From Elusimicrobiota bacterium (GTDB lineage: Bacteria > Elusimicrobiota > Elusimicrobia > F11), in contig JBJXGI010000060.1 in the NCBI GenBank assembly GCA_046153645.1, positions 1-45,561 of the forward strand: a stretch of 45,561 nucleotides of DNA. The letters run 5' to 3'. Below the pieces are notes generated by a model. That model was not told the DNA's origin and searched no databases. It saw only the letters and a list, made by a program, of their open reading frames with translations. Numbering within the stretch: position 1 is the first letter of the stretch; each line of letters begins with the position of its first letter. A program made the position numbers and the translations under genes. Below are positions 6,383-45,561 of this stretch, in pieces.

Positions 6383-7408
6383 TTAATTATCGGTCCCGGT
6401 TTTTTTATAGATATTTAAAACAGATCCAGAGAGCGGCGGTTTTTTATCGGACTCAAGACGCTCTGTTGTTCGTCGATCTTGAAAAACAATACTTCCACCG
6501 TTTCTCTCGATAGTATGCTTAACGTAACTTTTCATCTCGGTCAGTTGCTGAATAAGAACAGGGTATTGAGTGGTCTCAATATTCTTGTCAGTGAGGAATA
6601 CAATTGAAGCAGAAACAAATTTAAATTTTTTGACATTTCCTTGGCGGTCTTTTGCTGTAATACACCCCGCTTTTAAATCTGCCTCTGAATAATAAGCCAT
6701 TATTCTTTCGTCAAAACGTTTAGCAATCCAATTAAAAACTGTTTCAGCTTTATCAGGAGTTGTCATTGAAACAAAATCGTCTCCTCCAATATGCCCGATG
6801 AAATCAGATTGATTTCCCCATCTTTTGATGCTTTGAACCAATAAATCAGCTAGAAGTCGAATAACTTTGTCTCCCTGTTTAACGCCATAAACGTCGTTAT
6901 AGGCTTTAAAATTATCCAAATCAATATAAGCAAATGACATGGGGTTTCCAGAGGCTAATCTCCGACGAGCTTCATCTTCAATTGCCAAGTTTCCAGGAAG
7001 TCCCGTTAGCGGATTATGCCCCATGTCTACTTTTTTACGTTGCAGCATTCTTTTTACACGAGCCATTAATTCCTGAGCGTCAAAAGGTTTGGTGAGAAAG
7101 TCATCAGCACCAACCTCAATAGACCGAATTCGATCCTGAGCATCCTTCCACCTTCCACTGACCATAACAATGGGAATGGCTCTCGTATGAGGGTCTTGGC
7201 GTAATTGTTCACATATTCTAAACCCATTTACACCAGGGAGTTTTAAATCTAGCACGAGCGCATCAGGAAGCATTTCTCTTACTTTATCAACGGCTAATCT
7301 CCCATCTTTTATCCATTCAACTTGATACCCAGCCAAAGTAAAAGTTAATTGAACATAAGAAGCGACTTGTTCATCATCATCAATAATTAAAATTTTTTCA
7401 CCAGCCAT
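6383..7408 (-). CDS. Response regulator with diguanylate cyclase (GGDEF-family) output domain
   Basis: REC: IIDDD, phospho-Asp in LVLDLKLP, KPF; cyclase: NPLTGLPGN, DLDNFKAYND, GGDDF. Confidence 0.92.
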   Translation of the reverse strand: MAGEKILIIDDDEQVASYVQLTFTLAGYQVEWIKDGRLAVDKVREMLPDALVLDLKLPGVNGFRICEQLRQDPHTRAIPIVMVSGRWKDAQDRIRSIEVGADDFLTKPFDAQELMARVKRMLQRKKVDMGHNPLTGLPGNLAIEDEARRRLASGNPMSFAYIDLDNFKAYNDVYGVKQGDKVIRLLADLLVQSIKRWGNQSDFIGHIGGDDFVSMTTPDKAETVFNWIAKRFDERIMAYYSEADLKAGCITAKDRQGNVKKFKFVSASIVFLTDKNIETTQYPVLIQQLTEMKSYVKHTIERNGGSIVFQDRRTTERLESDKKPPLSGSVLNIYKKTGTDN

Positions 7409-7423
7409 AGATCCTCCTAAAAC

Positions 7424-8107
7424 TTAAGCTTCTTTATTATCTTTCTTTAAAATAATAATTTCGATTCTTCGATTCGTCGCTCTGTTAATAGCAGAATCGT
7501 TTGGAACGATTGGATAATTTTCACCCATTCCCCAGGCAGATAATCTTTCATGAGGAATTCCACTTTTCGTTAATGCCTCCACAACTGAAAATGATCTTGC
7601 CGCCGACAATTCCCAATTAGAACCAAATCTTCCTCCTACAACAGGAATGTTATCCGTATGCCCTTGAACAACAACGTCACCTTCAACAAGTTTAATGAGA
7701 TTGGACAATTGCTCAAGTGCTGAAAATGCCTCCGGATCAAGAATGGCTTTGCCGCTCCCAAATAAAATTTTCTCATTTAATTGAACAACAACCTTCTCAG
7801 ATTCATTTTTAATTTGAAGTTCATTCCCAAAATTACTTTTCATTTTTTCTATATCTTCTGAAAACTGAGAGTAAGAAATATTTTCTTTTTTCAATTTATC
7901 TAAATTACTTTTAACAAGATAACTATAACCATATAAAACCAAGAAAAATATCATAAGGATGGTCATAAAGTCTGAATACGAAACAAGCCATAGGTTTTCC
8001 GATGAATAAAGACTCGTTCTTTTTGAACCGCCCAAAAAACCTAAAAAATCTTTTTTCCGAGAAAGCTCAGATTCAGCTGAAATATTACTTTCTTCACTTT
8101 CGAACAT
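7424..8107 (-). CDS. motB: MotB-family stator subunit with OmpA-like peptidoglycan-binding domain (copy 2)
   Basis: WLVSYSDFMT TM with conserved Asp; GHTDN, NWELSAARS, NRRIEI; start reassigned to ATG 8107. Confidence 0.9.
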   Translation of the reverse strand: MFESEESNISAESELSRKKDFLGFLGGSKRTSLYSSENLWLVSYSDFMTILMIFFLVLYGYSYLVKSNLDKLKKENISYSQFSEDIEKMKSNFGNELQIKNESEKVVVQLNEKILFGSGKAILDPEAFSALEQLSNLIKLVEGDVVVQGHTDNIPVVGGRFGSNWELSAARSFSVVEALTKSGIPHERLSAWGMGENYPIVPNDSAINRATNRRIEIIILKKDNKEA

Positions 8108-8759
8108 AGGGAAATTCCTTATATAAAACAATTTCAACCCTTCTATTCATCCGTCGACCAAGGTTCGTTTGATTGGATGCCCTGGGTTTATAAGGCCCGT
8201 AAGCTGCAGCCGCGATCTGCTCGGAGGGGATACCTAATTCAATGAGTTTATTAACGACAGATAAGGCACGACTCATAGAAAGCTCCCAGTTATCCTTATA
8301 ATTAATACTCCGAATGGGAACTGAATCACTATGGCCCTCGACAATAATAATTTGTTTGGATTTAACTAATGATTGCGCGATAACAGAAAATATTTCATTT
8401 GAAGATGCCTTTAATTCTGATTGAGCCGAATCAAATAAAACCTTCTCTCCAAATTCGATTCTTACATCGCCCAAACTTTGATTGACCATAACCCCTTTTT
8501 GACCACTCATATTGTTTTTTAAATCTGACGCGATATTTCCTAACAAATTAGATTTAAATTCAATGGTACTCGCAGGTTTAAACTGTTCTGCTTTAAAATT
8601 TTTTATTGCCTGAGCCAAAGCCTCATCACCAGCCACTGTAAGCCCATATAAAGAGAGAAAAACCAAAACAAGGTTCGTCATTAAATCAGCATAAATTGTT
8701 AACCAAATCCCCTCAGTGCGAGTATCTTTGACGGGAGGACGATAAAATCGGTGAAGCAT
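8094..8759 (-). CDS. motB: MotB-family stator subunit with OmpA-like domain (copy 1)
   Basis: WLTIYADLMT TM with conserved Asp; GHSDS, NWELSMSRA, NRRVEI. Confidence 0.9.
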   Translation of the reverse strand: MLHRFYRPPVKDTRTEGIWLTIYADLMTNLVLVFLSLYGLTVAGDEALAQAIKNFKAEQFKPASTIEFKSNLLGNIASDLKNNMSGQKGVMVNQSLGDVRIEFGEKVLFDSAQSELKASSNEIFSVIAQSLVKSKQIIIVEGHSDSVPIRSINYKDNWELSMSRALSVVNKLIELGIPSEQIAAAAYGPYKPRASNQTNLGRRMNRRVEIVLYKEFPYVRK

Positions 8760-8761
8760 TT

Positions 8762-9556
8762 TTATCCTTGATTGGCCGCGCCGGCACGAGAAGCAATAAC
8801 CTTGTTCTTACTTTTTCGATTCAAATACGATTCTAATCTTCTAGAAAGAATCGCCGGGCCTTCTTGTCGTTGAATTGAGAGAATAGCTTCGATCATAACT
8901 TCTTTCAAAAAAAGTTCTTGCTCAGAATAGCTTTGAAGTTTTCCAGCAATAGGAAGAAAGAGAAAGTTAGCGCCAAAAATTCCATAAAACGTAGCCGTCA
9001 TGGCCACAGCCATATGACTTCCCATGGTTCGAGGATCTGTTAAGTTCAATAACACCTCAACAACACCGACCAAGGTTCCCAATAAACCGAAAATAGGGGC
9101 ATAAGTCGCCATGTTTCTAAACACATTGGAGACTTCTTCATGACGCAGTCGAATGAAATGGATTTCTTTTTCTAAATTTGATCGGACCAAATTTTCTGGC
9201 AAACCATCGGCGATTAATTTCAGTCCATTGGCAAGAAATTGATCAGAGGTTCCTCTCATATCCAACTCTAAACTTTCCATACTGGTTCTACGGGCACGTC
9301 CCGCCAATTCAAGCATTTGGCTCATAATGCTATCAGCAGATTCTCTTCTACCAGGGAACATAAACATAACAATAGCCATGGGAATTTTTTTGATAATTGA
9401 CCAAGGATATGTAATTAAGGTTGCCCCTAATGTTCCACCAAAGACAAGAACAGCCGCATGGGTATTCATGAAAAATTTTGCAGTTTCACCATCACCTAAA
9501 ACCCAGGCCACCGCACCAAGCCCAACAAACCACCCTAAAAATGTCATTAAATCCAT
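8762..9556 (-). CDS. motA: MotA/PomA-family stator subunit
   Basis: VFGGTLGA, ARRTSMESLE, APIFGLLGTLVG, AMTATFYG, LPIAGKL; four-TM flagellar-type architecture. Confidence 0.92.
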   Translation of the reverse strand: MDLMTFLGWFVGLGAVAWVLGDGETAKFFMNTHAAVLVFGGTLGATLITYPWSIIKKIPMAIVMFMFPGRRESADSIMSQMLELAGRARRTSMESLELDMRGTSDQFLANGLKLIADGLPENLVRSNLEKEIHFIRLRHEEVSNVFRNMATYAPIFGLLGTLVGVVEVLLNLTDPRTMGSHMAVAMTATFYGIFGANFLFLPIAGKLQSYSEQELFLKEVMIEAILSIQRQEGPAILSRRLESYLNRKSKNKVIASRAGAANQG

Positions 9557-9562
9557 GATTTA

Positions 9563-11266
9563 TTATCCTTCTCCCACATTTTTCGAATCTTTTTCTCTAG
9601 AGAATTCTCCATCTTGAACAGGAAACCTTTCTTGATCCGTCCTCTTTTTCAAAAAATTACTTATTTTATTTTCAATATCGTTGCCGGGTCTTGAGGCAGA
9701 ATCAACACTAAGGGATTCTTCAAACTTCATTCCTGCTGGAAGTTTAAGCGAATGACGCAAAGAACCAGCAAGTCTTTCGGCGGGTGAAAAACTCTTTACT
9801 TCGGGGATATGGATATGCCCCTCGGCTTTTAATCTTTTGGCAATAAGCGAAATTTTCCTCTGGGCATCGGTAATTATTTTAGGAGTTAAATTCTCTGTTT
9901 TAAAACTGAGTTCATCCCGGATAATTTCAGCTTTACCTTCTGGGACATGCTCAAGAATTTTATTAACAAACAATTCATCAGATGCTCTTAAACTTAAAAT
10001 CAATGTTTGTAGATCAACTTCCCTTAAAATAGCTTTTAGCGAAGACACCTCAAACTTATCTAAATCCTCAAACAAAAATGAACGCTGCCGCATTTCCTCT
10101 GCAATCTCTGGACTGGACTCTTTCAAATTCTCCAACATATTTCGTTGCGCTTCCGGGTCTAATGACTCATAAACAGAAAACATTCTTTCAGGACCACCGA
10201 TCATATAGTCTAAACGCCTTTTTAAATCTTGCTCAATATCTTCAACTTGTTCGGGGAGAAGTTGCCTTGTTGTTGCCAATTTTGATGTTATTTCACTTTG
10301 CAAAGTAGGACTAATTTTAGACATAACTCGAATAATCCAATCAGCTGGTAAATAACCCAACACAACCGCCGCTTTTTCAGGAGATTCTTTAGAAAGTATG
10401 ACCGCTAAATTACTTATATTATCCTCACGGATAAAACCAAAAGGTAGCGTCGTCTTATTTGGATTTTCAACTTGCAATGCTCCGGAAAAATTTGTGTTCC
10501 CTCCTCCATTCCCTCCATTTGGAAGTCCATAAGATGGCGGAAAATAAGGTGGTATGAGCGGGAAAGGATCGGCCCGATTCCTCCCCGAATCTTCAGGTTT
10601 TAAAGTTGGCAAAATTTGAATCAGGTTATTGAGAAATCCGCGTAAAGGTCCAAACATAAATAACAAGCAAACAAAAACACAAAAAATAGTCAAAATCAAA
10701 ACCACAACAACCCAGTAGTTTTTTAACTCAGTTTGAATGCGATTCATAGGGGAATTATTAACGATAGGAGTGGCAGACTTATTAAACTTTGACTTCTGAA
10801 TATTAAGACTATCGCCTCTTTCAGGATCCAATCCCAAAATCTGCCTTGTCAATTCTCTTACCTTTCCCACTTCAACCTCGGGAAGACTTTCATCTAAAAC
10901 CAGGGTTACAGAAATTCTTTTTATAAATTTCTTAAAAAACTTATCTTCTGTTTTTAATGTATCAACTAAACTTTTAACTTGTTGTGAGGTTTCATTTAGA
11001 GAACTTCTATTTGGTACACCCGGCAAGAAAAAACCATCTGACTCGTCTTGGACAACCGTGTTCGGTGATGAAACCAAAGGCTCTATTCGGACAACCACGA
11101 CAAATTGATCTGGTGATAAAATTTTAGATAACACTTCTTCAACTCTCTGTTGCATCCGAACTTCGAGGTTGAGTCGCTCGCTATCCCATGAAACATCAAT
11201 TGAATAAATAAGGCCCACAAAAACAAAGGGTGCGATCACTAAAAAAGAAAAAAGTTTACGGAACAC
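9563..11266 (-). CDS. FliF C-terminal ring domain (RBM3) fused through a TM helix to FliG middle and C-terminal domains
   Basis: FliF-like LEVRMQQRVEEVLSKIL..FVVVVRIE and IKRISVTLVLD..ILGLDPERGDSLNIQKSKF; TM; FliG-like LSKESPEKAAVVLGYLP, GG linker, FLFEDL, AILREVDLQTLILSLR, KAEIIRDEL, DAQRKI; GTG start at 11266 after GGGGG SD. Confidence 0.85.
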   Translation of the reverse strand: MFRKLFSFLVIAPFVFVGLIYSIDVSWDSERLNLEVRMQQRVEEVLSKILSPDQFVVVVRIEPLVSSPNTVVQDESDGFFLPGVPNRSSLNETSQQVKSLVDTLKTEDKFFKKFIKRISVTLVLDESLPEVEVGKVRELTRQILGLDPERGDSLNIQKSKFNKSATPIVNNSPMNRIQTELKNYWVVVVLILTIFCVFVCLLFMFGPLRGFLNNLIQILPTLKPEDSGRNRADPFPLIPPYFPPSYGLPNGGNGGGNTNFSGALQVENPNKTTLPFGFIREDNISNLAVILSKESPEKAAVVLGYLPADWIIRVMSKISPTLQSEITSKLATTRQLLPEQVEDIEQDLKRRLDYMIGGPERMFSVYESLDPEAQRNMLENLKESSPEIAEEMRQRSFLFEDLDKFEVSSLKAILREVDLQTLILSLRASDELFVNKILEHVPEGKAEIIRDELSFKTENLTPKIITDAQRKISLIAKRLKAEGHIHIPEVKSFSPAERLAGSLRHSLKLPAGMKFEESLSVDSASRPGNDIENKISNFLKKRTDQERFPVQDGEFSREKDSKNVGEG

Positions 11267-12203
11267 GAATTCCCCCTGTTTTAGTTCCATATAGGAATTT
11301 TCGTAAACTGTCGTTATTGGGTTCCAATTGGAGGGCTTTTGTCCAAATTTGTTTTGCCTTCTCTCGTTCGTTCATTGCAAAATAAGCTGATCCAAGGCGG
11401 GTGAGAGCAAGAACATTTTCCGGTTCCAAATCTAAAACATCTGTACACTCTGAAATCGCAGTGAGATATCTCCCCTCGTAAATAGATTCAAGAGAGACCT
11501 GCAATTTATGCTCAACCAAAGTAATACCCGAGGGAACTCGAGGCGTGTCAACTTCCGGGTGTTCATTTTCAACAAGACGCATCAATCGTGAAAATTCAAC
11601 TCGTTCGATTTTTTTATCTGAGGCATATATCAATGTATTTAATGAGCGTTTGGGATCATTTTCCAAGAAATGCGTAACGGCCAAACGAAAAAGACGTGAG
11701 TCTAATGACTCCCCCAATTCCGCTTCGGTAATGGGGTTAATCGCCTCTAACTTTCTACGAATCACTTTGATGGAATTATCTTGTGGAATTAATCTCTCCG
11801 CATTTCGAAAGGTTTCAAGAGAAAATTGATACTGCCCATCACGATACTCTCCCACGCCCTTATTATAAAATTGAGTCGCTTTACTTTGGGATTCAGAGGC
11901 TCTTAATTGCTGTTGTTTTTCTTCTAAAATAAGTCGTGATCTTTCAGTTTCTAAATCAACAACATTTAAACCCATGGGCTTATAATTATCGATTAATCTG
12001 TCTAACTCAATTATTCTCTCATGGAGATTTAAACCGTTACCAACTTTTTGTCGATAAGCAGCAACTTCTTTATCTAATTCTTCTTTAAGGGAGGGCAAAA
12101 TATTTTCCGCAGAATCCCAACTCCACCCTATTATTGTTGATGGATTTAAGATTGCAAAAAACATGCTGAAAAATAAGACTGTTTTTAACGCCGGTCTAAT
12201 CAA
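11256..12203 (-). CDS. Exported tetratricopeptide-repeat protein, first gene of the motor operon
   Basis: N-terminal signal-like segment; TPR repeats FYNKGVGEYRDGQYQFSLETFRNAERLIP and ALTRLGSAYFAMNEREKAKQIWTKALQLEP; SD GAGGAG. Confidence 0.85.
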   Translation of the reverse strand: MIRPALKTVLFFSMFFAILNPSTIIGWSWDSAENILPSLKEELDKEVAAYRQKVGNGLNLHERIIELDRLIDNYKPMGLNVVDLETERSRLILEEKQQQLRASESQSKATQFYNKGVGEYRDGQYQFSLETFRNAERLIPQDNSIKVIRRKLEAINPITEAELGESLDSRLFRLAVTHFLENDPKRSLNTLIYASDKKIERVEFSRLMRLVENEHPEVDTPRVPSGITLVEHKLQVSLESIYEGRYLTAISECTDVLDLEPENVLALTRLGSAYFAMNEREKAKQIWTKALQLEPNNDSLRKFLYGTKTGGIRVP

Positions 12204-38004: not shown

Positions 38005-39045
38005 GTGAAAAAAATTCCCATTCATTCGATTGTTTCTACTCTTTTATTACTCACTTTTTTATCTGGTGCGGCTTATTCAGAATCAATGAAACCTGTCTTC
38101 TTGATAAGCAAAGATGACCTTAATCTTATTCAAGAACGCCAACGCCTCTATAGATTAGGGATGAAAATTCAGCACGAAATTCCTCCCCGGATTATTATGG
38201 GAGAAATCCCTTCTAGTTTAAATACAAATTTATTAGCTCCTTTGAATATCTACACGAGCCCCATCGCAATTGCAGTGGTAGAACCATTAGGACCTATAGC
38301 TATTTCAGGAGCTTTAGAATGGAATAAAAAACTATTAAATTCTTCCCAAAAAATTGGGACCGCTAGTTTTAACGTCATGAAATCATTGGTATCACAAAAA
38401 TCTTTCCCTGGACCCGAAAATTTAGCTTGGAAAAACGAAACCGACTATTGGATATTGAATTGGGAAACGACCAGTAAACCCATATATTTTGAGATTCAAG
38501 GAGCACCGGACGCTTCTTTTAACAACATCACCTATCGAACCAAAACGAATTTAAATTCTTTGCTGATTCCATTTCCTTTACAAGGGAATAATCTCGCTGC
38601 GGTTTATTACAGGGTTCGATCTATTGACCGTCCCAATCCAAATAATCCTTCAGAAGAAATGAACGGAATGTGGTCTCAATTAACCTCCCCTTCTCCACAA
38701 ACTTTACCCAATCAAAATACCAACGTTTCCCCCTCTCTAACATCACCCGTTAATGGCTATCAATCAGAAGGTTTTACCATTAATCTTGAATGGACTTCTT
38801 CTCAGAGATCACGTATCCAAATCGCTGAAGATTCAAAATTCTCAAACATTTTGATAGACCAAATGGCGTTAGATGGCGAGTTTTTTATCCCCAACACGGT
38901 TTTTATTTCAGGTAAAAATTATCATTGGCGTGTATCGAACTGGTCCCTTCAACAAAGCCCATGGAGTGATTCCCGGTCATTTTGGGTGGGAGAACCAAAA
39001 CAAAACTATACAGATATGTTTGTAAACCCCGAGGCCCCCAAATGA
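38005..39045 (+). CDS. Exported hypothetical protein with fibronectin-III/Ig-like domains
   Basis: Signal peptide ending AAYS; PSLTSP.NG...LEW...IQIAEDSKFSN...YHWRV...WSDSRSF pattern; probable GTG start 38005; overlaps next gene (ATGA). Confidence 0.7.
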   Translation: MKKIPIHSIVSTLLLLTFLSGAAYSESMKPVFLISKDDLNLIQERQRLYRLGMKIQHEIPPRIIMGEIPSSLNTNLLAPLNIYTSPIAIAVVEPLGPIAISGALEWNKKLLNSSQKIGTASFNVMKSLVSQKSFPGPENLAWKNETDYWILNWETTSKPIYFEIQGAPDASFNNITYRTKTNLNSLLIPFPLQGNNLAAVYYRVRSIDRPNPNNPSEEMNGMWSQLTSPSPQTLPNQNTNVSPSLTSPVNGYQSEGFTINLEWTSSQRSRIQIAEDSKFSNILIDQMALDGEFFIPNTVFISGKNYHWRVSNWSLQQSPWSDSRSFWVGEPKQNYTDMFVNPEAPK

Positions 39046-40511
39046 GAAAAGGGCTTTTAACTTTAGCGCTCATGGTTTTTCTCAAATCATTTAGCCACGC
39101 AGGCATTCATGCTGTCGGATTAGATAAAACCCAATATACGAGTGACTTTATGATAGGAAAAGTCGCCGTATGCATTATTTTCCCAGAGTCCAATGGTGGA
39201 CAAGATGCAAACACAGAAACCTGGAGCGATGACCGAAAATCGCAAGTTATTTCAGAAATTATGTCAGGCCTTGATTGGTGGACAAAACAAAACCCTCGTT
39301 CTCATTTAAGTTTCACCTACATAACAAAAACAATTGCAACTAAATATGAGCCCATCGCTCGTCCTTATTATGATGAGGCGCTTTGGATCCCAGACATCAT
39401 GAGCAAAATTGGTTACACAGGCGGACGGTTTACCGCCACAAGAAATTTTAATAACGCGTTAAGAGACGAGTATGGAACCAACTGGGCTTTCACTATTTTT
39501 ATCGTTGATAGCTTAAATGACACCAATGGTAAATTCGCAGATGGCCTTTTTGCTTATGCCTATCTCGGTGGTCCTTTTTTAGTGATGACTTATGATAACA
39601 ACGGTTACGGCATAACGAACATGGATGTAGTTGCAGCCCATGAAACAGGCCACATATTCAATGCCCTAGATCAATACGCCGGAGCCAGTTCTCCCAATGA
39701 CTTCTCTATTGGATATTTTCAAACCATTAATGGGAACCATTCCTATTCCTCTACAGCCAATGAGCCCTCATCAATTATGCGGGGTGGAATTCGTTGGGGG
39801 TTAGATAGTTGGGCAAAACAAATGGTAGGGTGGAGAGATTCCAATAACAATAATTTAGATGATCTTATCGACCCACAGCCTACTTTTCAACTTTCATCAA
39901 GTCCAAGTCAATCAGGCAACGGAAATAATTCGTTTTCAGGCGCTGCTTCTGTGAGTGTGCTTCCAAGACAGGGCAATACCCAAGGAAAAGGGCTAACATT
40001 AGATACGGTGTCCAAAGTTGAATACAAAATAAACAACAATGATTGGCAACAAGCTGTCCCCGCAGATGGGATTTTTGATAGCGCACAAGAGTCATTCCAA
40101 ATTAATATTCCAGCCTCTACAACGCTGGGGGCTCAAAATGTTCAAGCAAGTGATTTAACTTTAAGAATTTCGACTTTTTATCAGTCAAACCCTGGAACGA
40201 GTACTCATGGTGGAGGCGGATCTCCATCGAACTTAAATGACGCGCATGCCTATCCCAACCCATTCAAACCAAACTCATCACTGGGGCACGTTGATATTAC
40301 TTTCACTGGTCTTACCAATGGTTCAAAGGTTCAAGTTTTCTCCCCCGCAGGTGAACCTGTCTTCGAAGGAATAGTGGTACCCGCGTCCCATACGCTCCAA
40401 TGGAGGGCCATTAACGATAATGGAACGGCTCTCTCAAGCGGCGTCTACTATTATCTCATCACAGATGATGCAGGAAATAAAAAGAAAGGAAAAATTGCCG
40501 TTATTAGATAA
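39042..40511 (+). CDS. Exported zinc metalloprotease (metzincin-like) with T9SS type-A-like/FlgD-Ig C-terminal domain
   Basis: Signal peptide; HETGHIFNALD and Met-turn SIMRG; C-terminal AYPNPF...SGVYYYLI...KGKIAVIR. Confidence 0.82.
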   Translation: MRKGLLTLALMVFLKSFSHAGIHAVGLDKTQYTSDFMIGKVAVCIIFPESNGGQDANTETWSDDRKSQVISEIMSGLDWWTKQNPRSHLSFTYITKTIATKYEPIARPYYDEALWIPDIMSKIGYTGGRFTATRNFNNALRDEYGTNWAFTIFIVDSLNDTNGKFADGLFAYAYLGGPFLVMTYDNNGYGITNMDVVAAHETGHIFNALDQYAGASSPNDFSIGYFQTINGNHSYSSTANEPSSIMRGGIRWGLDSWAKQMVGWRDSNNNNLDDLIDPQPTFQLSSSPSQSGNGNNSFSGAASVSVLPRQGNTQGKGLTLDTVSKVEYKINNNDWQQAVPADGIFDSAQESFQINIPASTTLGAQNVQASDLTLRISTFYQSNPGTSTHGGGGSPSNLNDAHAYPNPFKPNSSLGHVDITFTGLTNGSKVQVFSPAGEPVFEGIVVPASHTLQWRAINDNGTALSSGVYYYLITDDAGNKKKGKIAVIR

Positions 40512-40743: not shown

Positions 40744-41649
40744 ATGAGAAAGTTAGCGTTCATCATCATGAGCTTGGGTCTGGCGGGCAGTGTGCAAGCC
40801 GCTGGGACAAGCTCCGCCCAGTTCCTTAAATTGGGTGCGGGTGCAAAAGCTGCGGCCTTGGGTGAAGCCGCCGTTTCAGTAACCGATGATGTGACAGCCG
40901 CATATTGGAATCCCGCAGGACTATCAAAAGTAGAATCAACTGAATTGGCACTGATGCAAAATTCCTATTTAGTGGATACGAATTATCAGTATGCCGGGTT
41001 GGCTCTTCCAACGAGAAACTACACTTTTGCGTTCTCGTTTTATCGAATGGATTATGGTTCGATTGATAGTTATAACGCTTCCAATGTGAAACAAGGCAGT
41101 TTTAATGCTGGTTCTATGGCGGGCAGCATTTCATTAGCTAAAAAATTAAGTGACTCTGCTTCTATGGGAATGTCTCTTAAATACATATCTGAATCCATTG
41201 AAAACGAAAGCGGAACCGCTTTTGCCGCTGATTTTGGCGGAATAATGAAAGTATCCCGGTTTTCTATCGGAGCTTCCATTCAAAACTTAGGATCCAGCAT
41301 TAAGTTTGTTAAAGAAAGTGAAGATCTCCCACTCACAATTCGATTGGGCGCCTCAACACAATTTTTTAATGAAAAGTTAACTGGTGCTTTTGACATTTCA
41401 AAAGCCAGAGATAACGAAGCGACATTCCATACCGGCCTTGATTATAAATTACTCTCAATCGTCAGTTTAAGAGCGGGTTATCAAGTAACACCTGGCAATA
41501 GCTTAAATATTGATGGCATCACTAACATTAGTGGCGGAATGGGTATTAGTTTAAAAAACTTCAACATCGACTATGCGGTATCTCCTTTTGGAGATTTAGG
41601 CATGGCTCATCGAATTAGCCTCAAGTACAAATTCGCTGCTCGTGAATAA
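40744..41649 (+). CDS. PorV/PorQ-like (UPF0164) outer-membrane beta-barrel protein
   Basis: Signal peptide; FLKLGAGAKAAALGEA...AAYWNPAGL; IDYAVSPFGDLGMAHRISL.YKF terminus. Confidence 0.87.
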   Translation: MRKLAFIIMSLGLAGSVQAAGTSSAQFLKLGAGAKAAALGEAAVSVTDDVTAAYWNPAGLSKVESTELALMQNSYLVDTNYQYAGLALPTRNYTFAFSFYRMDYGSIDSYNASNVKQGSFNAGSMAGSISLAKKLSDSASMGMSLKYISESIENESGTAFAADFGGIMKVSRFSIGASIQNLGSSIKFVKESEDLPLTIRLGASTQFFNEKLTGAFDISKARDNEATFHTGLDYKLLSIVSLRAGYQVTPGNSLNIDGITNISGGMGISLKNFNIDYAVSPFGDLGMAHRISLKYKFAARE

Positions 41650-41798: not shown

Positions 41799-41859
41799 GT
41801 CTAACATGTTTTATCCGCCATGCCTCTCGGCACATCGGATAAAACACTATTTGTTGGAC
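41799..41859. mobile_element. attC-like integron recombination site (61 bp)
   Basis: RYYYAAC (GTCTAAC) and GTTRRRY (GTTGGAC) ends enclosing an 11-bp perfect inverted repeat TGTTTTATCCG/CGGATAAAACA and an inner TGCC/GGCA hairpin. Confidence 0.6.
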
Positions 41860-41888
41860 CGCTGATTAGAAGTGCTGTGGGGGGAGGC

Positions 41889-42812
41889 ATGATAAAGACG
41901 TTCGTTATCGCGAGTATTTTTGGAGTGTGCTCGTCATTGGCGTTCGGGCAAGACAAAAATAGGTCAGGAGCGTTATCTAACCGGTTTATCGATGAGGATG
42001 CCAATGTCCTTTTTTATTATCCAAATGACTACTCGGTAACCAAAGAGGGCGTCTCCATGCATTTATCAGGAGATGGAATCTGTGAATTCGATTTTCAGAG
42101 AATCGTGGAGAAAGATATTTCCGGTTTCAAACAGGAGGCATCCGATTTTGCGCGTGTACTGATGGCTGATGGCCCGGGTACAACGTTGACTACTCAGATC
42201 ATTAGCGAGCGTGAGCTAGCAATGAGGTCGGGTATTTTTGGAACCGAATACTCTTTGGTTTTCGTTTGTTCGGGTGATTGTGAGAATTATAAGTTGGAAG
42301 ATGGCTTCGACGCTAAGAAGCCTATTTCTATCTATGTTTTCGGCATTCCGCAGCGATGTGGATTTAGCTTAATTCGATTTGGCGGCGAAGCCAGGACGAC
42401 GGTTTCACGTGAGACCCTTTTCAAAATATTTGAAACCATCGGACAAGGTCACCCAGATAAATGGGTGGCAGAAGCATTAGCCCCATCTCCTTCCTGGTCT
42501 GATTTCTTTAGACGTTATCAACGGTACGGTTACTGTGATGACAACGATACTCAACTTTCATTTTCTCGATCAGCATCTCTCATTTTTACGCAGCAGTGGG
42601 ACCAAATATCTTACGTGCGAAATTCGAAATTGGCAGACCCCTCTTCGTTTAAATTTGTGCTTAGGCATATTGACGCGACATGGAGCGCAGATTCTCTCAA
42701 CCAACTAAGGTCCAATGCAGAAACGAATTGCTTAGACAGATTATTCTATGGGGAGATTTGCGAAAAACTTAAAGAGGCAGCTGAAGCGGCGATAGCCGTA
42801 AAGCGGAAGTGA
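41889..42812 (+). CDS. Exported hypothetical protein, probable gene-cassette cargo
   Basis: SD GGGGAGG then ATG 41889; signal peptide ending AFG; several Cys; visibly more GC-rich than neighbours. Confidence 0.7.
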   Translation: MIKTFVIASIFGVCSSLAFGQDKNRSGALSNRFIDEDANVLFYYPNDYSVTKEGVSMHLSGDGICEFDFQRIVEKDISGFKQEASDFARVLMADGPGTTLTTQIISERELAMRSGIFGTEYSLVFVCSGDCENYKLEDGFDAKKPISIYVFGIPQRCGFSLIRFGGEARTTVSRETLFKIFETIGQGHPDKWVAEALAPSPSWSDFFRRYQRYGYCDDNDTQLSFSRSASLIFTQQWDQISYVRNSKLADPSSFKFVLRHIDATWSADSLNQLRSNAETNCLDRLFYGEICEKLKEAAEAAIAVKRK

Positions 42813-43140: not shown

Positions 43141-43449
43141 ATGAAAGAAAAATATGTGACAGAAAAGCTGTTCTTGGAAACGAGAAAGGAAATAGACGAA
43201 CGGTTTGAGCAGGTGGATCAGCGTTTTGATGAACTTGATCAAAAAGTAAATCGAATTGCCTTATCTCTCGTTAAAACGCAGGAAGAAGTGAAAGAAATCC
43301 GAGAAACCATGGCCACAAAAAGTGATATTCAAAAAGTTTTAGATACAGTTGAGGCATTTGCCACTAGTACCGCCAGCTTAGATAGAAGCGCCATTATTCA
43401 TGAATACCGCTTATCTCTACTTGAAAAACATTGCGGGGTTAATAAATAA
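43141..43449 (+). CDS. Small coiled-coil hypothetical protein
   Basis: Heptad repeats IDERFEQ-VDQRFDE-LDQKVNR, MATKSDI; SD AGGGAG. Confidence 0.75.
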   Translation: MKEKYVTEKLFLETRKEIDERFEQVDQRFDELDQKVNRIALSLVKTQEEVKEIRETMATKSDIQKVLDTVEAFATSTASLDRSAIIHEYRLSLLEKHCGVNK

Positions 43450-43636: not shown

Positions 43637-45205
43637 ATGAAGTCAACAGCAGAATTCAAGTTCATAAAATTAATGGCCTTCGGCGTGTTCCTGATCAAAG
43701 GAGTATTTGCTTCTTTTGATCCACTTCCCGTTGGTGGACGGGCGGCTGGAATGGGAGAAGCCTATTCTGCTATTGCTGACGATATTTACGCACTTTATTA
43801 TAACCCCGCCGGAATTCTTCAAATTAATCGACCAGAGTTTGGTACTTATTATTCTCAACTATACCCTGGTTTAACTGACAGCTCTAAGATTTCTCGAATG
43901 TATATTGGTTATGGCCAACCATTTGGGAAAAACGGCAAACATGGCGGTATTGGCGTTAGTTATCTGTCTCTAGGCCTCCCTAGCCTTTATAAAGAAGAAG
44001 CCTTTGGACTGACCTATGGTTATGAATACCGACATTTATGGAATTTTGGGACAACAGTTAAATTACTGAGGAAACAAATTGGGTCTGACAACTACACCAG
44101 TAACGCGATTGATCCTATTACTGGAAACAGCACTGGATCACCTGATCCTTTATTAGCTAAATCTAAAAGCGCTTCAGGAATTGGTCTTGATTTAGGCTTT
44201 CAATATAGACTTACCAGCGCTTACGCACTAGGTCTTGTCGCGAGAAACATCAACAATCCCAGTCTTTCTATTGCCGATGGAGGAGACAAAGCCTCTTCCG
44301 TTTACAGTGCCGCGTTGGCACGAAAATTGCGAAAAGGATCATTGAACCTGGAAATAACACAATGGAAAACAATCGACAGTAATCTCAAATTATCCTTAGG
44401 TGGAGAACATTGGTTCAAAAATGGTTTTGGACTTCGAGCCGGTGGAAGCTTTGGGAATCGAAACCTTTCAAACATAAGCTTTGGCAGTTCATATAAAATG
44501 GAATCTTTCCAACTTGATTATGCGGCTATTTTGCCTCTTCAAGGGATCGAGGGGACCCTTGGAATTCAACAAGTATCTTTAACCGTGAGATTGGGTAAAC
44601 CACCTGTAGATGCTCTTGAAGTACAATTATTAAAAGAAAAAGAAGATCGTATTCGAGCTGAGAGTGAAGCGCGCTATGCAAAAGCGGAAAGTGATCGATT
44701 AAAAGCTCAACTTTATGCATTAACTGAAGCCAAATCACAGGCACAAAAAGAAATTGAGAAACAAGCAGCTCAAAAAACACTCGATGAAGCCAGACAAGCA
44801 GAAAAAGCAAGAACACTGAAAAATCAAAATATTGAATCTGATAAAGTTATTTTTAATTCTTATACCAATGCCCTAGCAGAATACAATTCTAAAGTTTCTG
44901 ATGGTATAAGCCTTTCAGATAAACGAAAAATACTAGAGAAGATACAAAATGATTTCGCTGGTAAAGGGGTAGATACTTCTACCATCATAAGAGAACTGAG
45001 AAATTTAAAAATAGAAGAATCTAAATCAAAAAAAGACTTTGATCTATCGTTGAGTTTCTATCAACGGCTTGCACAACAAGGAGCATCAATAGAAGAACGC
45101 AAAGGAATGTTAGATAGAATTATCCAAAAATACAAAGGATCAGGCGTTGATGTTTCAGAAGCAGAAAAAGAAATGAAAACTCTTTCAGAAGGGAAGTCTA
45201 ATTAA
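43637..45205 (+). CDS. PorV/PorP-like beta-barrel with C-terminal coiled coil and a tandem helical repeat
   Basis: GGRAAGMGEAY..IADD..ALYYNPAG N-terminus; barrel ends QLDYA...QQVSLTVRLG; then charged coiled coil and two ~50-aa repeats. Confidence 0.82.
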   Translation: MKSTAEFKFIKLMAFGVFLIKGVFASFDPLPVGGRAAGMGEAYSAIADDIYALYYNPAGILQINRPEFGTYYSQLYPGLTDSSKISRMYIGYGQPFGKNGKHGGIGVSYLSLGLPSLYKEEAFGLTYGYEYRHLWNFGTTVKLLRKQIGSDNYTSNAIDPITGNSTGSPDPLLAKSKSASGIGLDLGFQYRLTSAYALGLVARNINNPSLSIADGGDKASSVYSAALARKLRKGSLNLEITQWKTIDSNLKLSLGGEHWFKNGFGLRAGGSFGNRNLSNISFGSSYKMESFQLDYAAILPLQGIEGTLGIQQVSLTVRLGKPPVDALEVQLLKEKEDRIRAESEARYAKAESDRLKAQLYALTEAKSQAQKEIEKQAAQKTLDEARQAEKARTLKNQNIESDKVIFNSYTNALAEYNSKVSDGISLSDKRKILEKIQNDFAGKGVDTSTIIRELRNLKIEESKSKKDFDLSLSFYQRLAQQGASIEERKGMLDRIIQKYKGSGVDVSEAEKEMKTLSEGKSN

Positions 45206-45219
45206 AAAAGTACAATACG

Positions 45220-45561
45220 ATGAAAATGAATAAAGCACTCATATTTATAGGACTTTCGATTCTTATATCTCCCATGGGAATTTCTTCCAGTCAATCTATA
45301 GGCGGAGTGGTTCTAACGGATGTAGCGCCACGTATTGTAACGCCCAATGGCGACGCATTAAATGACGTTGTATTTTTCAAGTTTGACTCTAACCTCGCAG
45401 GGATCCCAATAGAAAGTCAAATCGTTGATATTTCAGGAGCGAAAGTAGCAAATCTTGAATTCAATTCGAATGAAACTGCGCTTTTATGGAATGGAAAAGA
45501 TACTTCGGGCAATATTGTTCCGGCAGGAATCTATATTTATTCCATCATCATAGGAAAGAAA
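45220..45561 (+). CDS. Partial ORF: signal peptide followed directly by a T9SS type-B-like (CHU_C/FlgD-Ig) domain
   Basis: Hand translation MKMNKALIFIGLSILISPMG...PRIVTPNGDALNDVVFF...LLWNGKDTSGNIVPAGIYIY; open to window end. Confidence 0.82.
   Translation, partial: MKMNKALIFIGLSILISPMGISSSQSIGGVVLTDVAPRIVTPNGDALNDVVFFKFDSNLAGIPIESQIVDISGAKVANLEFNSNETALLWNGKDTSGNIVPAGIYIYSIIIGKK

Follow-up and report, generated by a model that had tools for sequence, protein, structure and literature searches.

Two exported proteins encoded on one Elusimicrobiota contig, a TPR protein and an outer-membrane barrel, share a small three-helix domain of about 55 aa that belongs to a real and unnamed family. We refer to it as 'X', which is a label of this report only; the module of barrel, TPR and motor genes described below is equally real. 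Overall, X looks like a general cell-wall tether rather than a motor-specific connector. In the reading we favor, to which we give a probability of roughly 0.45, X would be a mobile periplasmic module that tethers its hosts to the cell wall, with peptidoglycan as the most likely ligand. The window, by which we mean the whole stretch of DNA that was analysed, is 45,561 nucleotides long.

Genes of the window

The TPR gene is the first gene of a motor operon, and the X-bearing barrel gene lies 33 kb away on the opposite strand. The features are as follows.

11256..12203, minus strand: 315-aa exported TPR protein with a signal-peptide-like segment, X and a TPR module at about 100-305; gene 1 of the motor operon
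11931..12080, minus strand: domain X of the TPR protein, residues 42-91, right after the signal-peptide-like segment
9563..11290, minus strand: FliF-like/FliG fusion with YscJ_FliF_C (98-169), FliG_M and FliG_C
8762..9556, minus strand: MotA-like stator subunit
8094..8759, minus strand: MotB-like subunit 1, plug match below the cut-off, OmpA-type peptidoglycan-binding domain
7424..8137, minus strand: MotB-like subunit 2, MotB_plug and OmpA domain
6383..7408, minus strand: response regulator with a partial GGDEF match, last gene of the motor run
38982..40511, plus strand: exported protein, C-terminal T9SS-like sorting domain below the cut-off, weak metalloprotease match
40744..41649, plus strand: plain barrel lacking X, assigned to the PorV/PorQ family by an NCBIfam match over the cut-off
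43637..45205, plus strand: 522-aa outer-membrane barrel of the PorP/SprF/PorV superfamily; barrel at about 26-322, helical stalk of about 82 residues, two X
44858..45007, plus strand: domain X, tandem copy 1 of the barrel, residues 408-457
45035..45184, plus strand: domain X, tandem copy 2 of the barrel, residues 467-516, 59 aa past copy 1
45220..45561, plus strand: small protein, exported, whose sorting domain is of the CHU_C type (type B-like); the contig ends within the gene

The small CHU_C-type protein is the probable cognate cargo of the X-bearing barrel. In family relatives, an Omp85/POTRA gene comes after the small sorting-domain gene (L103:7386-9140, L102:9837-11489), with a 3600-aa ORF in one of them; the window contig stops before the region that would match this gene. 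Between the two barrel genes of the window there are a 102-aa coiled-coil repeat ORF (43141-43449, plus strand) and a 330-aa exported ORF (41820-42812, plus strand) with no Pfam match. Both look inserted, since the barrels adjoin each other in family relatives. The response regulator is 76-84% identical to its family relatives, and it closes the motor operon at the equivalent position in G148 and G317; its GGDEF match spans only positions 3-88 of 161. An Rfam scan over the window returned three tRNAs only and no riboswitch ahead of the motor operon, and no rod, hook or flagellin genes stand beside that operon in the window.

The X domain family

The initial annotation had proposed that the TPR protein and the barrel carry an unrecognised domain in common, and the proposal is borne out. 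Residues 42-91 of the TPR protein and residues 467-516 of the barrel are identical at 16 of 50 positions in an ungapped alignment, with the residue pattern that had been described. The Smith-Waterman score of the pair is 72, a value reached by none of 3000 full shuffles (maximum 46) and by none of 3000 shuffles within 10-residue windows (maximum 47). When the TPR-borne copy was compared with the 1885 ORFs of at least 150 aa in the genome, the barrel ranked first after the protein itself (72), followed by another X-bearing barrel at 50 and then by a score of 46. Copy 1 of the barrel has 13 of 50 identities to copy 2 and 10 of 50 to the TPR copy. A profile from which the three TPR-borne rows were removed still recognises the segment in the TPR protein with 39.1 bits (E 2.8e-10). 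With a profile of 77 sequences, the five copies in this genome score 32-75 bits and the next ORF 8 bits; the top reversed-ORF decoy reaches 9.9 bits against the full X profile. These five copies reside in three proteins, the third being a barrel on contig C99 that has two. The shuffles, the ranking among the genome's ORFs and the profile without TPR rows together rule out a chance likeness of amphipathic helices, and the similarity of the two segments is homology.

There is no Pfam, NCBIfam or PDB family for X. A Pfam scan of the 77 members found no recurring family; the commonest was Turandot (5 of 77, E 0.006), the best single E-value was 1.6e-4 in one member, and no TPR family was among the first 25 of the 37 families matched. 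The NCBIfam scan of the same 77 members gave no family in more than two of them, and the PDB sequence search gave no whole-domain match, only 12-residue helix matches to consensus TPRs. A derivation of X from the TPR module by degeneration was ruled out by an hhalign probability of 0.3%.

In the structural model, X consists of helices at 2-18, 23-38 and 45-55 (pLDDT 85.5). In the model of the full TPR protein the third helix continues as a 40-residue helix (82-121) into the TPR module, and the stalk ahead of X in the barrel is predicted to be helical from sequence. The most conserved residues are a Tyr (99%, Phe in 1%), a Leu (95%), a Glu (92%), a second Tyr (86%) and two Gly. A second aromatic position is kept in 65% of the members, three positions are basic in 77-83%, and the median net charge is +2; the conserved basic residues lie in helices 1 and 2, and conserved acidic residues are found where helix 2 begins and within helix 3.

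A Foldseek search with the domain model gave no match at E <= 0.001, and the Atlas searches gave no usable match. In the fold search, de novo designed mini-bundles rank first; the best natural match has a Z of 8.1, and SprE has 7.3. The TPR units of FimV, YbgF and BamD also consist of three helices, which are about as long as those of X and pack alike (Z 6.2-6.9 at about 2 A, E 1-6; TMq 0.71 for YbgF), but the units have no sequence match to X and their conserved residues differ. The match to FimV TPR3 (4mbq/4mal; TMq 0.66, Z 6.9, E 1.2) is no better than that to unrelated bundles. As judged from the models, these fold matches are at the noise level for helical bundles.

Hosts and architectures

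The X profile retrieves 336 representatives at E <= 0.001 from a collection of 1.84 billion. Those that carry a name are Elusimicrobia or 'bacterium', and there is no plasmid match. The hosts were classified for the best 150 of the 336. Barrels of the PorP/SprF/PorV superfamily dominate with 71, followed by 7 Wza-like exporters, 7 barrels of other types, 5 TPR-module proteins, 3 inner-membrane proteins, 2 FliF-FliG fusions and 3 other matches. No class was assigned to the remaining 52 of these best 150, among which are many fragments and one false positive; the match P0150 was rejected because its score was summed over Sel1 repeats. A multiheme cytochrome, HEAT-repeat proteins and more barrels are among the full-length unclassified hosts.

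The position of X within its hosts was followed in 227 distinct sequences, a pool biased to barrels by the way it was gathered. X comes after a barrel in 122 of them, after a signal-peptide-like segment in 45 and after three TM helices in 4, and it is internal with a signal-peptide-like N-terminus in 5; the other 51, which look like fragments by eye, have no export segment. No clearly cytoplasmic full-length host was seen among the 227. We infer from the signal-peptide-like N-termini and from the barrel topology that X is periplasmic. X occurs in one to three tandem copies, most often as one or two copies on PorP/SprF/PorV-like barrels, and the tandem spacing is 59 aa in 23 of 27 cases. Long flexible linkers separate the copies in the C99 barrel and in P0132, and the other-type barrels carry X behind proline-rich linkers. 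In its hosts, X is always either terminal or positioned where a helix or linker ends.

Several of the other hosts deserve a brief description. Four FliF-FliG proteins (P0129, P0156, P0189 and P0190) have X at the N-terminus, directly after the signal peptide; a search for their genomic context found no locus. A relative at L115:6140-8044, 31% identical to P0129, has no X. Wza-like polysaccharide export proteins (Poly_export/SLBB; L075, L076, L082, L093, L094, L131) have an N-terminal X and a C-terminal hydrophobic helix. Two inner-membrane proteins (L084:147-2507 and L081:6020-8098) have a Cys-rich, zinc-finger-like N-terminal part, three TM helices and two C-terminal X, with no family matched over most of the sequence. 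Another TPR protein (L087:3042-6844) has an internal X and adjoins a PorZ-like propeller/OmpA protein and a barrel-X-X gene, a layout like the PorE arrangement of Bacteroidota.

Barrels, cargo and export

The genome has at least 17 barrels of the PorP/SprF/PorV superfamily. The X-bearing barrel of the window matches NF033709 (PorV/PorQ) at 68.8 bits (E 6e-19), below the 90-bit cut-off, whereas the plain barrel scores 177.7 bits. PF11751 (PorP/SprF) has no match in the window barrel; it is above the cut-off in three of the seven barrel-X-X relatives scanned and in two of four motor-operon barrel-TPR proteins. A sorting-domain gene adjoins the barrel+X gene in 15 of the 18 loci with both flanks visible, a count that leaves aside 26 further barrel+X ORFs whose flanks are incomplete. 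Cognate shuttle genes beside their cargo genes are described for Flavobacterium (PMC12618676).

The genome also encodes a SprA/Sov-like ORF of 1811 aa (C100:33124-38556, L098:5125-10557), with a match to TIGR04189 at E 1.6e-25 and 88.7 bits against a cut-off of 200. Homologues of it were found in 177 of 201 genomes of the phylum. No match to GldK, GldL, GldM or GldN was found in this genome, which is 99.7% complete, with control genomes that included no Bacteroidota positive.

The closest known arrangement is that of PorP-PorE in P. gingivalis and SprF-SprB in F. johnsoniae. PorE, with its TPRs and OmpA-type domain, is described as a bridge from PorP and type B cargo to peptidoglycan (PMC9143113). 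Here too, a PorP/SprF-like barrel gene lies beside a gene for a type B-like sorting domain, a periplasmic TPR partner has a wall-binding domain (LysM in relatives), and the genome has a SprA-like pore. The differences are that the barrel and the TPR partner are often one polypeptide here, that the tail is LysM or X rather than an OmpA-type domain, and that, unlike in the PorP/SprF systems of Bacteroidota, a FliF-FliG/MotAB operon goes with the barrel genes and no GldK/L/M/N match was found.

The barrel-TPR-motor link

The initial annotation had also connected the barrel with the motor operon, and relatives confirm the connection, TPR module included, through gene fusions and gene order. The TPR module was matched in 67 of 201 genomes. 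Of the 30 best loci, 24 have it as the C-terminal part of a longer protein, with a barrel match in 23 of these, and in most of them FliF-FliG comes next. LysM is the last domain of the barrel-TPR fusion in family f15, where a barrel-X-X gene is found a few kb upstream in the same orientation; G072 has X at this end of the fusion, and the TPR-X fragment P0145 is alike. Family f5 has a tail-less barrel followed by an X-TPR-LysM protein and FliF-FliG in four of the five genomes examined, a contig end cutting the fifth. X-TPR-LysM proteins are known from these five f5 genomes and from P0154.

The tail-less f5 barrel is sister to the window barrel and its family orthologue with a support of 100/99 in a 28-row tree, and the nearest sampled relative of the window barrel outside its own family heads a motor operon in G064 (again 100/99). 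A single clade (99/97) unites the X copies carried by the TPR proteins of f1, f5 and f33. These copies score higher to barrel copy 1 than to copy 2 (42 vs 25 bits for the window copy). An independent recruitment of X to the motor proteins is not demonstrated by the tree, and the AU test does not reject one clade (p 0.165). From the fusions and the gene order in relatives, we take the TPR and barrel genes of the window to be pieces of a single module that have come apart, with products that probably continue to interact.

The operon shares with the flagellar motor core (FliF, FliG, MotA5B2) a MotA, FliF- and FliG-like parts, and MotB, here as two proteins that each have a wall-binding domain; it differs in that the FliF and FliG parts are fused. 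A second fused-motor operon (C81:1840-12560, L032) encodes a barrel-TPR protein, FliF-FliG-TPR, two long coiled-coil proteins, MotA and MotB, with no X. A flagellar cluster at C58:20000-61000 has FliF, FliG, MotA and MotB ORFs of its own, which brings the genome to three MotAB systems with FliG-like partners. Across the phylum, flagellin is above the cut-off in 6 of 201 genomes, compared with about 68 that have the FliF-FliG fusion. The occurrence of motAB, flbD and fliG without flagella in free-living Elusimicrobiota is reported in 10.1101/2022.07.08.499144, where their role is called unclear. Our literature search, which covered few subscription journals, found no description of domain X or of barrel-motor fusions in Elusimicrobiota.

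Distribution of X and the motor

The 77-row profile finds X in 163 of 401 genomes. Nearly all of these lie outside two large families with small genomes, probably gut and endosymbiont lineages: X is in 162 of the 194 genomes outside them and in 1 of 118 and 0 of 89 within them (1 of 207). Weak matches in G019 and G025 (family f12) were lost with a better profile, G025 having an E of 0.39. The FliF-FliG query matched 71 of 201 genomes, three of these matches being ordinary FliG. Among 80 genomes outside the two reduced families, 62 have both X and the motor, 7 have X only, 6 have the motor only and 5 have neither. The Fisher p of 0.009 for these 80 is overstated, as kin are not independent. X and the motor are associated; neither depends on the other.

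That X is a docking module specific to the motor, as had been suggested, is not supported, in view of X without the motor, the motor without X and the non-motor hosts. G124 and G349, which are 99% and 98% complete, have barrel-X-X genes beside sorting-domain genes and no match to FliG_C or MotA. The motor without X occurs in G007, G012, G017, G049 and G194, and in G194 and G007 the motor operons include barrels. A FliF-FliG match was found no more than 15 kb away for 19 of the 98 X-bearing ORFs, a lower bound owing to short contigs. The distribution of X is independent of the motor only in part: the 7 X-only and 6 motor-only genomes point one way, the 62 with both the other.

The parallel drawn with GldLM as an engine for secretion fares no better. 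The SprA-like pore is kept in 98 of 121 genomes of families that have neither the fused motor nor X (56 of 58 in one small-genome family, 42 of 63 in the other), so SprA-like export cannot need either of them. The analogy is loose in its geometry as well, because MotB is anchored to the wall and GldM is thought to be a rotating shaft (PMC9389320).

What X may bind

LysM, SLH, PG_binding_1 and SPOR are small cell-wall-binding modules, LysM and SLH occurring in tandem arrays. Like X, they are about 50-60 aa long, come in one to three copies and sit at the ends of unrelated envelope proteins. X differs from them in being all-helical in its three-helix model and in having no sequence match to any of the four, and its wall binding is putative. 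If X were a wall tether, a PorP/SprF-like barrel with X at the end of its long helical stalk would be anchored along with the cargo at the surface, in the way that PorE anchors PorP, and X on the TPR protein would anchor a periplasmic adaptor that joins the barrel to the FliF-FliG/MotAB products. A barrel tethered in this way would serve the motor as an anchor, a bushing or a load sensor, and not as a moving part.

Several observations are consistent with such a tether. LysM (in f15) and X (in G072 and P0145) replace each other at the end of the barrel-TPR fusions. The hosts are otherwise unrelated and are spread over both membranes and the periplasm, and the wall is the one structure that faces all of them; 176 of the 227 sequences have X behind a barrel, three TM helices or a signal-peptide-like segment, or inside a protein with a signal-peptide-like N-terminus. 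The tandem copies resemble LysM and SLH arrays, the stalks and linkers as well as the conserved Tyr, second aromatic and basic positions with the positive net charge would suit wall binding, and PorP-PorE together with the neighboring sorting-domain genes provides a precedent. Given the diversity of the envelope hosts and the single copy of X in some genomes, X most simply binds something common; no second X-bearing partner is needed, because several genomes (G064, G256 and G353) have a single X.

Other observations sit less easily with a wall tether. X and LysM coexist in the X-TPR-LysM proteins, which means that X is no simple substitute for LysM. The shape of X is like a TPR unit plus its cap, and TPRs are a class known for protein binding; the conserved Tyr and Glu might serve the fold alone. 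X is absent from the two large families and from five motor-bearing genomes, all presumably walled, and its presence at the N-terminus of four FliF-FliG proteins and at either end of the TPR module suggests a use in the motor.

The TPR-like shape and the coexistence with LysM are the reasons why we keep, as an unlikely yet serious second choice, the proposal that X is a protein-binding localisation tag. X would act as a single TPR-like unit and bring its hosts to one scaffold in the periplasm, such as a landmark protein or some component of the SprA-like translocon, so that barrels, polysaccharide exporter and motor gather at one site. A shared landmark suits the diverse hosts as well as a shared polymer does, and in Bacteroidota the TPR scaffold SprE and SkpA are described as the periplasmic part of the translocon, in contact with the base of PorV (PMC10994853). 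The fold matches, SprE included, are nevertheless at the noise level, and the sequence of X does not connect it with TPRs; the families that lack X keep their SprA-like pores, and no candidate scaffold was identified.

That X is the site by which the FliF-FliG/MotAB motor grips the barrels and their cargo in place of GldLM is improbable. X is indeed found on three products of motor operons in differing arrangements, where it precedes the TPR module, follows it or stands N-terminally on FliF-FliG; the nearest barrel relative in G064, the 62 genomes with both X and the motor and the missing GldK/L/M/N matches would all fit. They are outweighed by the barrel-X-X genes of G124 and G349, by the motor operons of G194 and G007 that have barrels and no X, by the few X ORFs near FliF-FliG (with the caveat of short contigs) and by the SprA-like genes that persist where the fused motor was not found. 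The f5 barrels, moreover, are tail-less, and three genomes have only a single X.

Self-association of X is slightly less probable again. Wza and FliF families form rings, and X on such hosts might help them to oligomerise or might link X-bearing proteins to each other; the conserved basic residues of helices 1-2 and the conserved acidic ones of helices 2 and 3 would be compatible with this. Many relatives of the same ring-forming hosts do without X, however, the L115 FliF-FliG among them, and in the single-copy genomes links between different X proteins are excluded. Least probable of all is a ligand-free helical cap or spacer that ends stalks, protects exported termini and has spread by domain shuffling: the terminal position of X and the designed mini-bundles among its best structural matches would suit it, but not the near-invariant Tyr, the Glu and the basic positions kept across unrelated hosts, nor the long flexible linkers between tandem copies.

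Significance

A wider picture, which we regard as a long shot, is that of an undescribed machine for surface motility or sensing in free-living Elusimicrobiota. In it, the FliF-FliG/MotAB motor, derived from the flagellum, would act through the TPR adaptor on SprF-like barrels, a SprA-like pore without GldKLMN would export their adhesins, and X would be a handle for a common track. If this is true, X is the interchangeable part by which rotor, adaptor and barrels engage one periplasmic track or scaffold.

It is worth pointing out that new modules for wall binding or for localisation in the envelope are rare, and that X marks most free-living members of a little-studied phylum. X is small, is predicted to fold alone and is easily expressed, which would allow its ligand to be assayed without culturing the organism. 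For this flagellum-independent motor operon, the identity of that ligand would decide between barrels fixed to the wall, as anchor, bushing or load sensor, and barrels moved by the motor in a gliding-like manner. A further gain would be to learn how cargo is retained by a T9SS-like export system outside the Bacteroidota.
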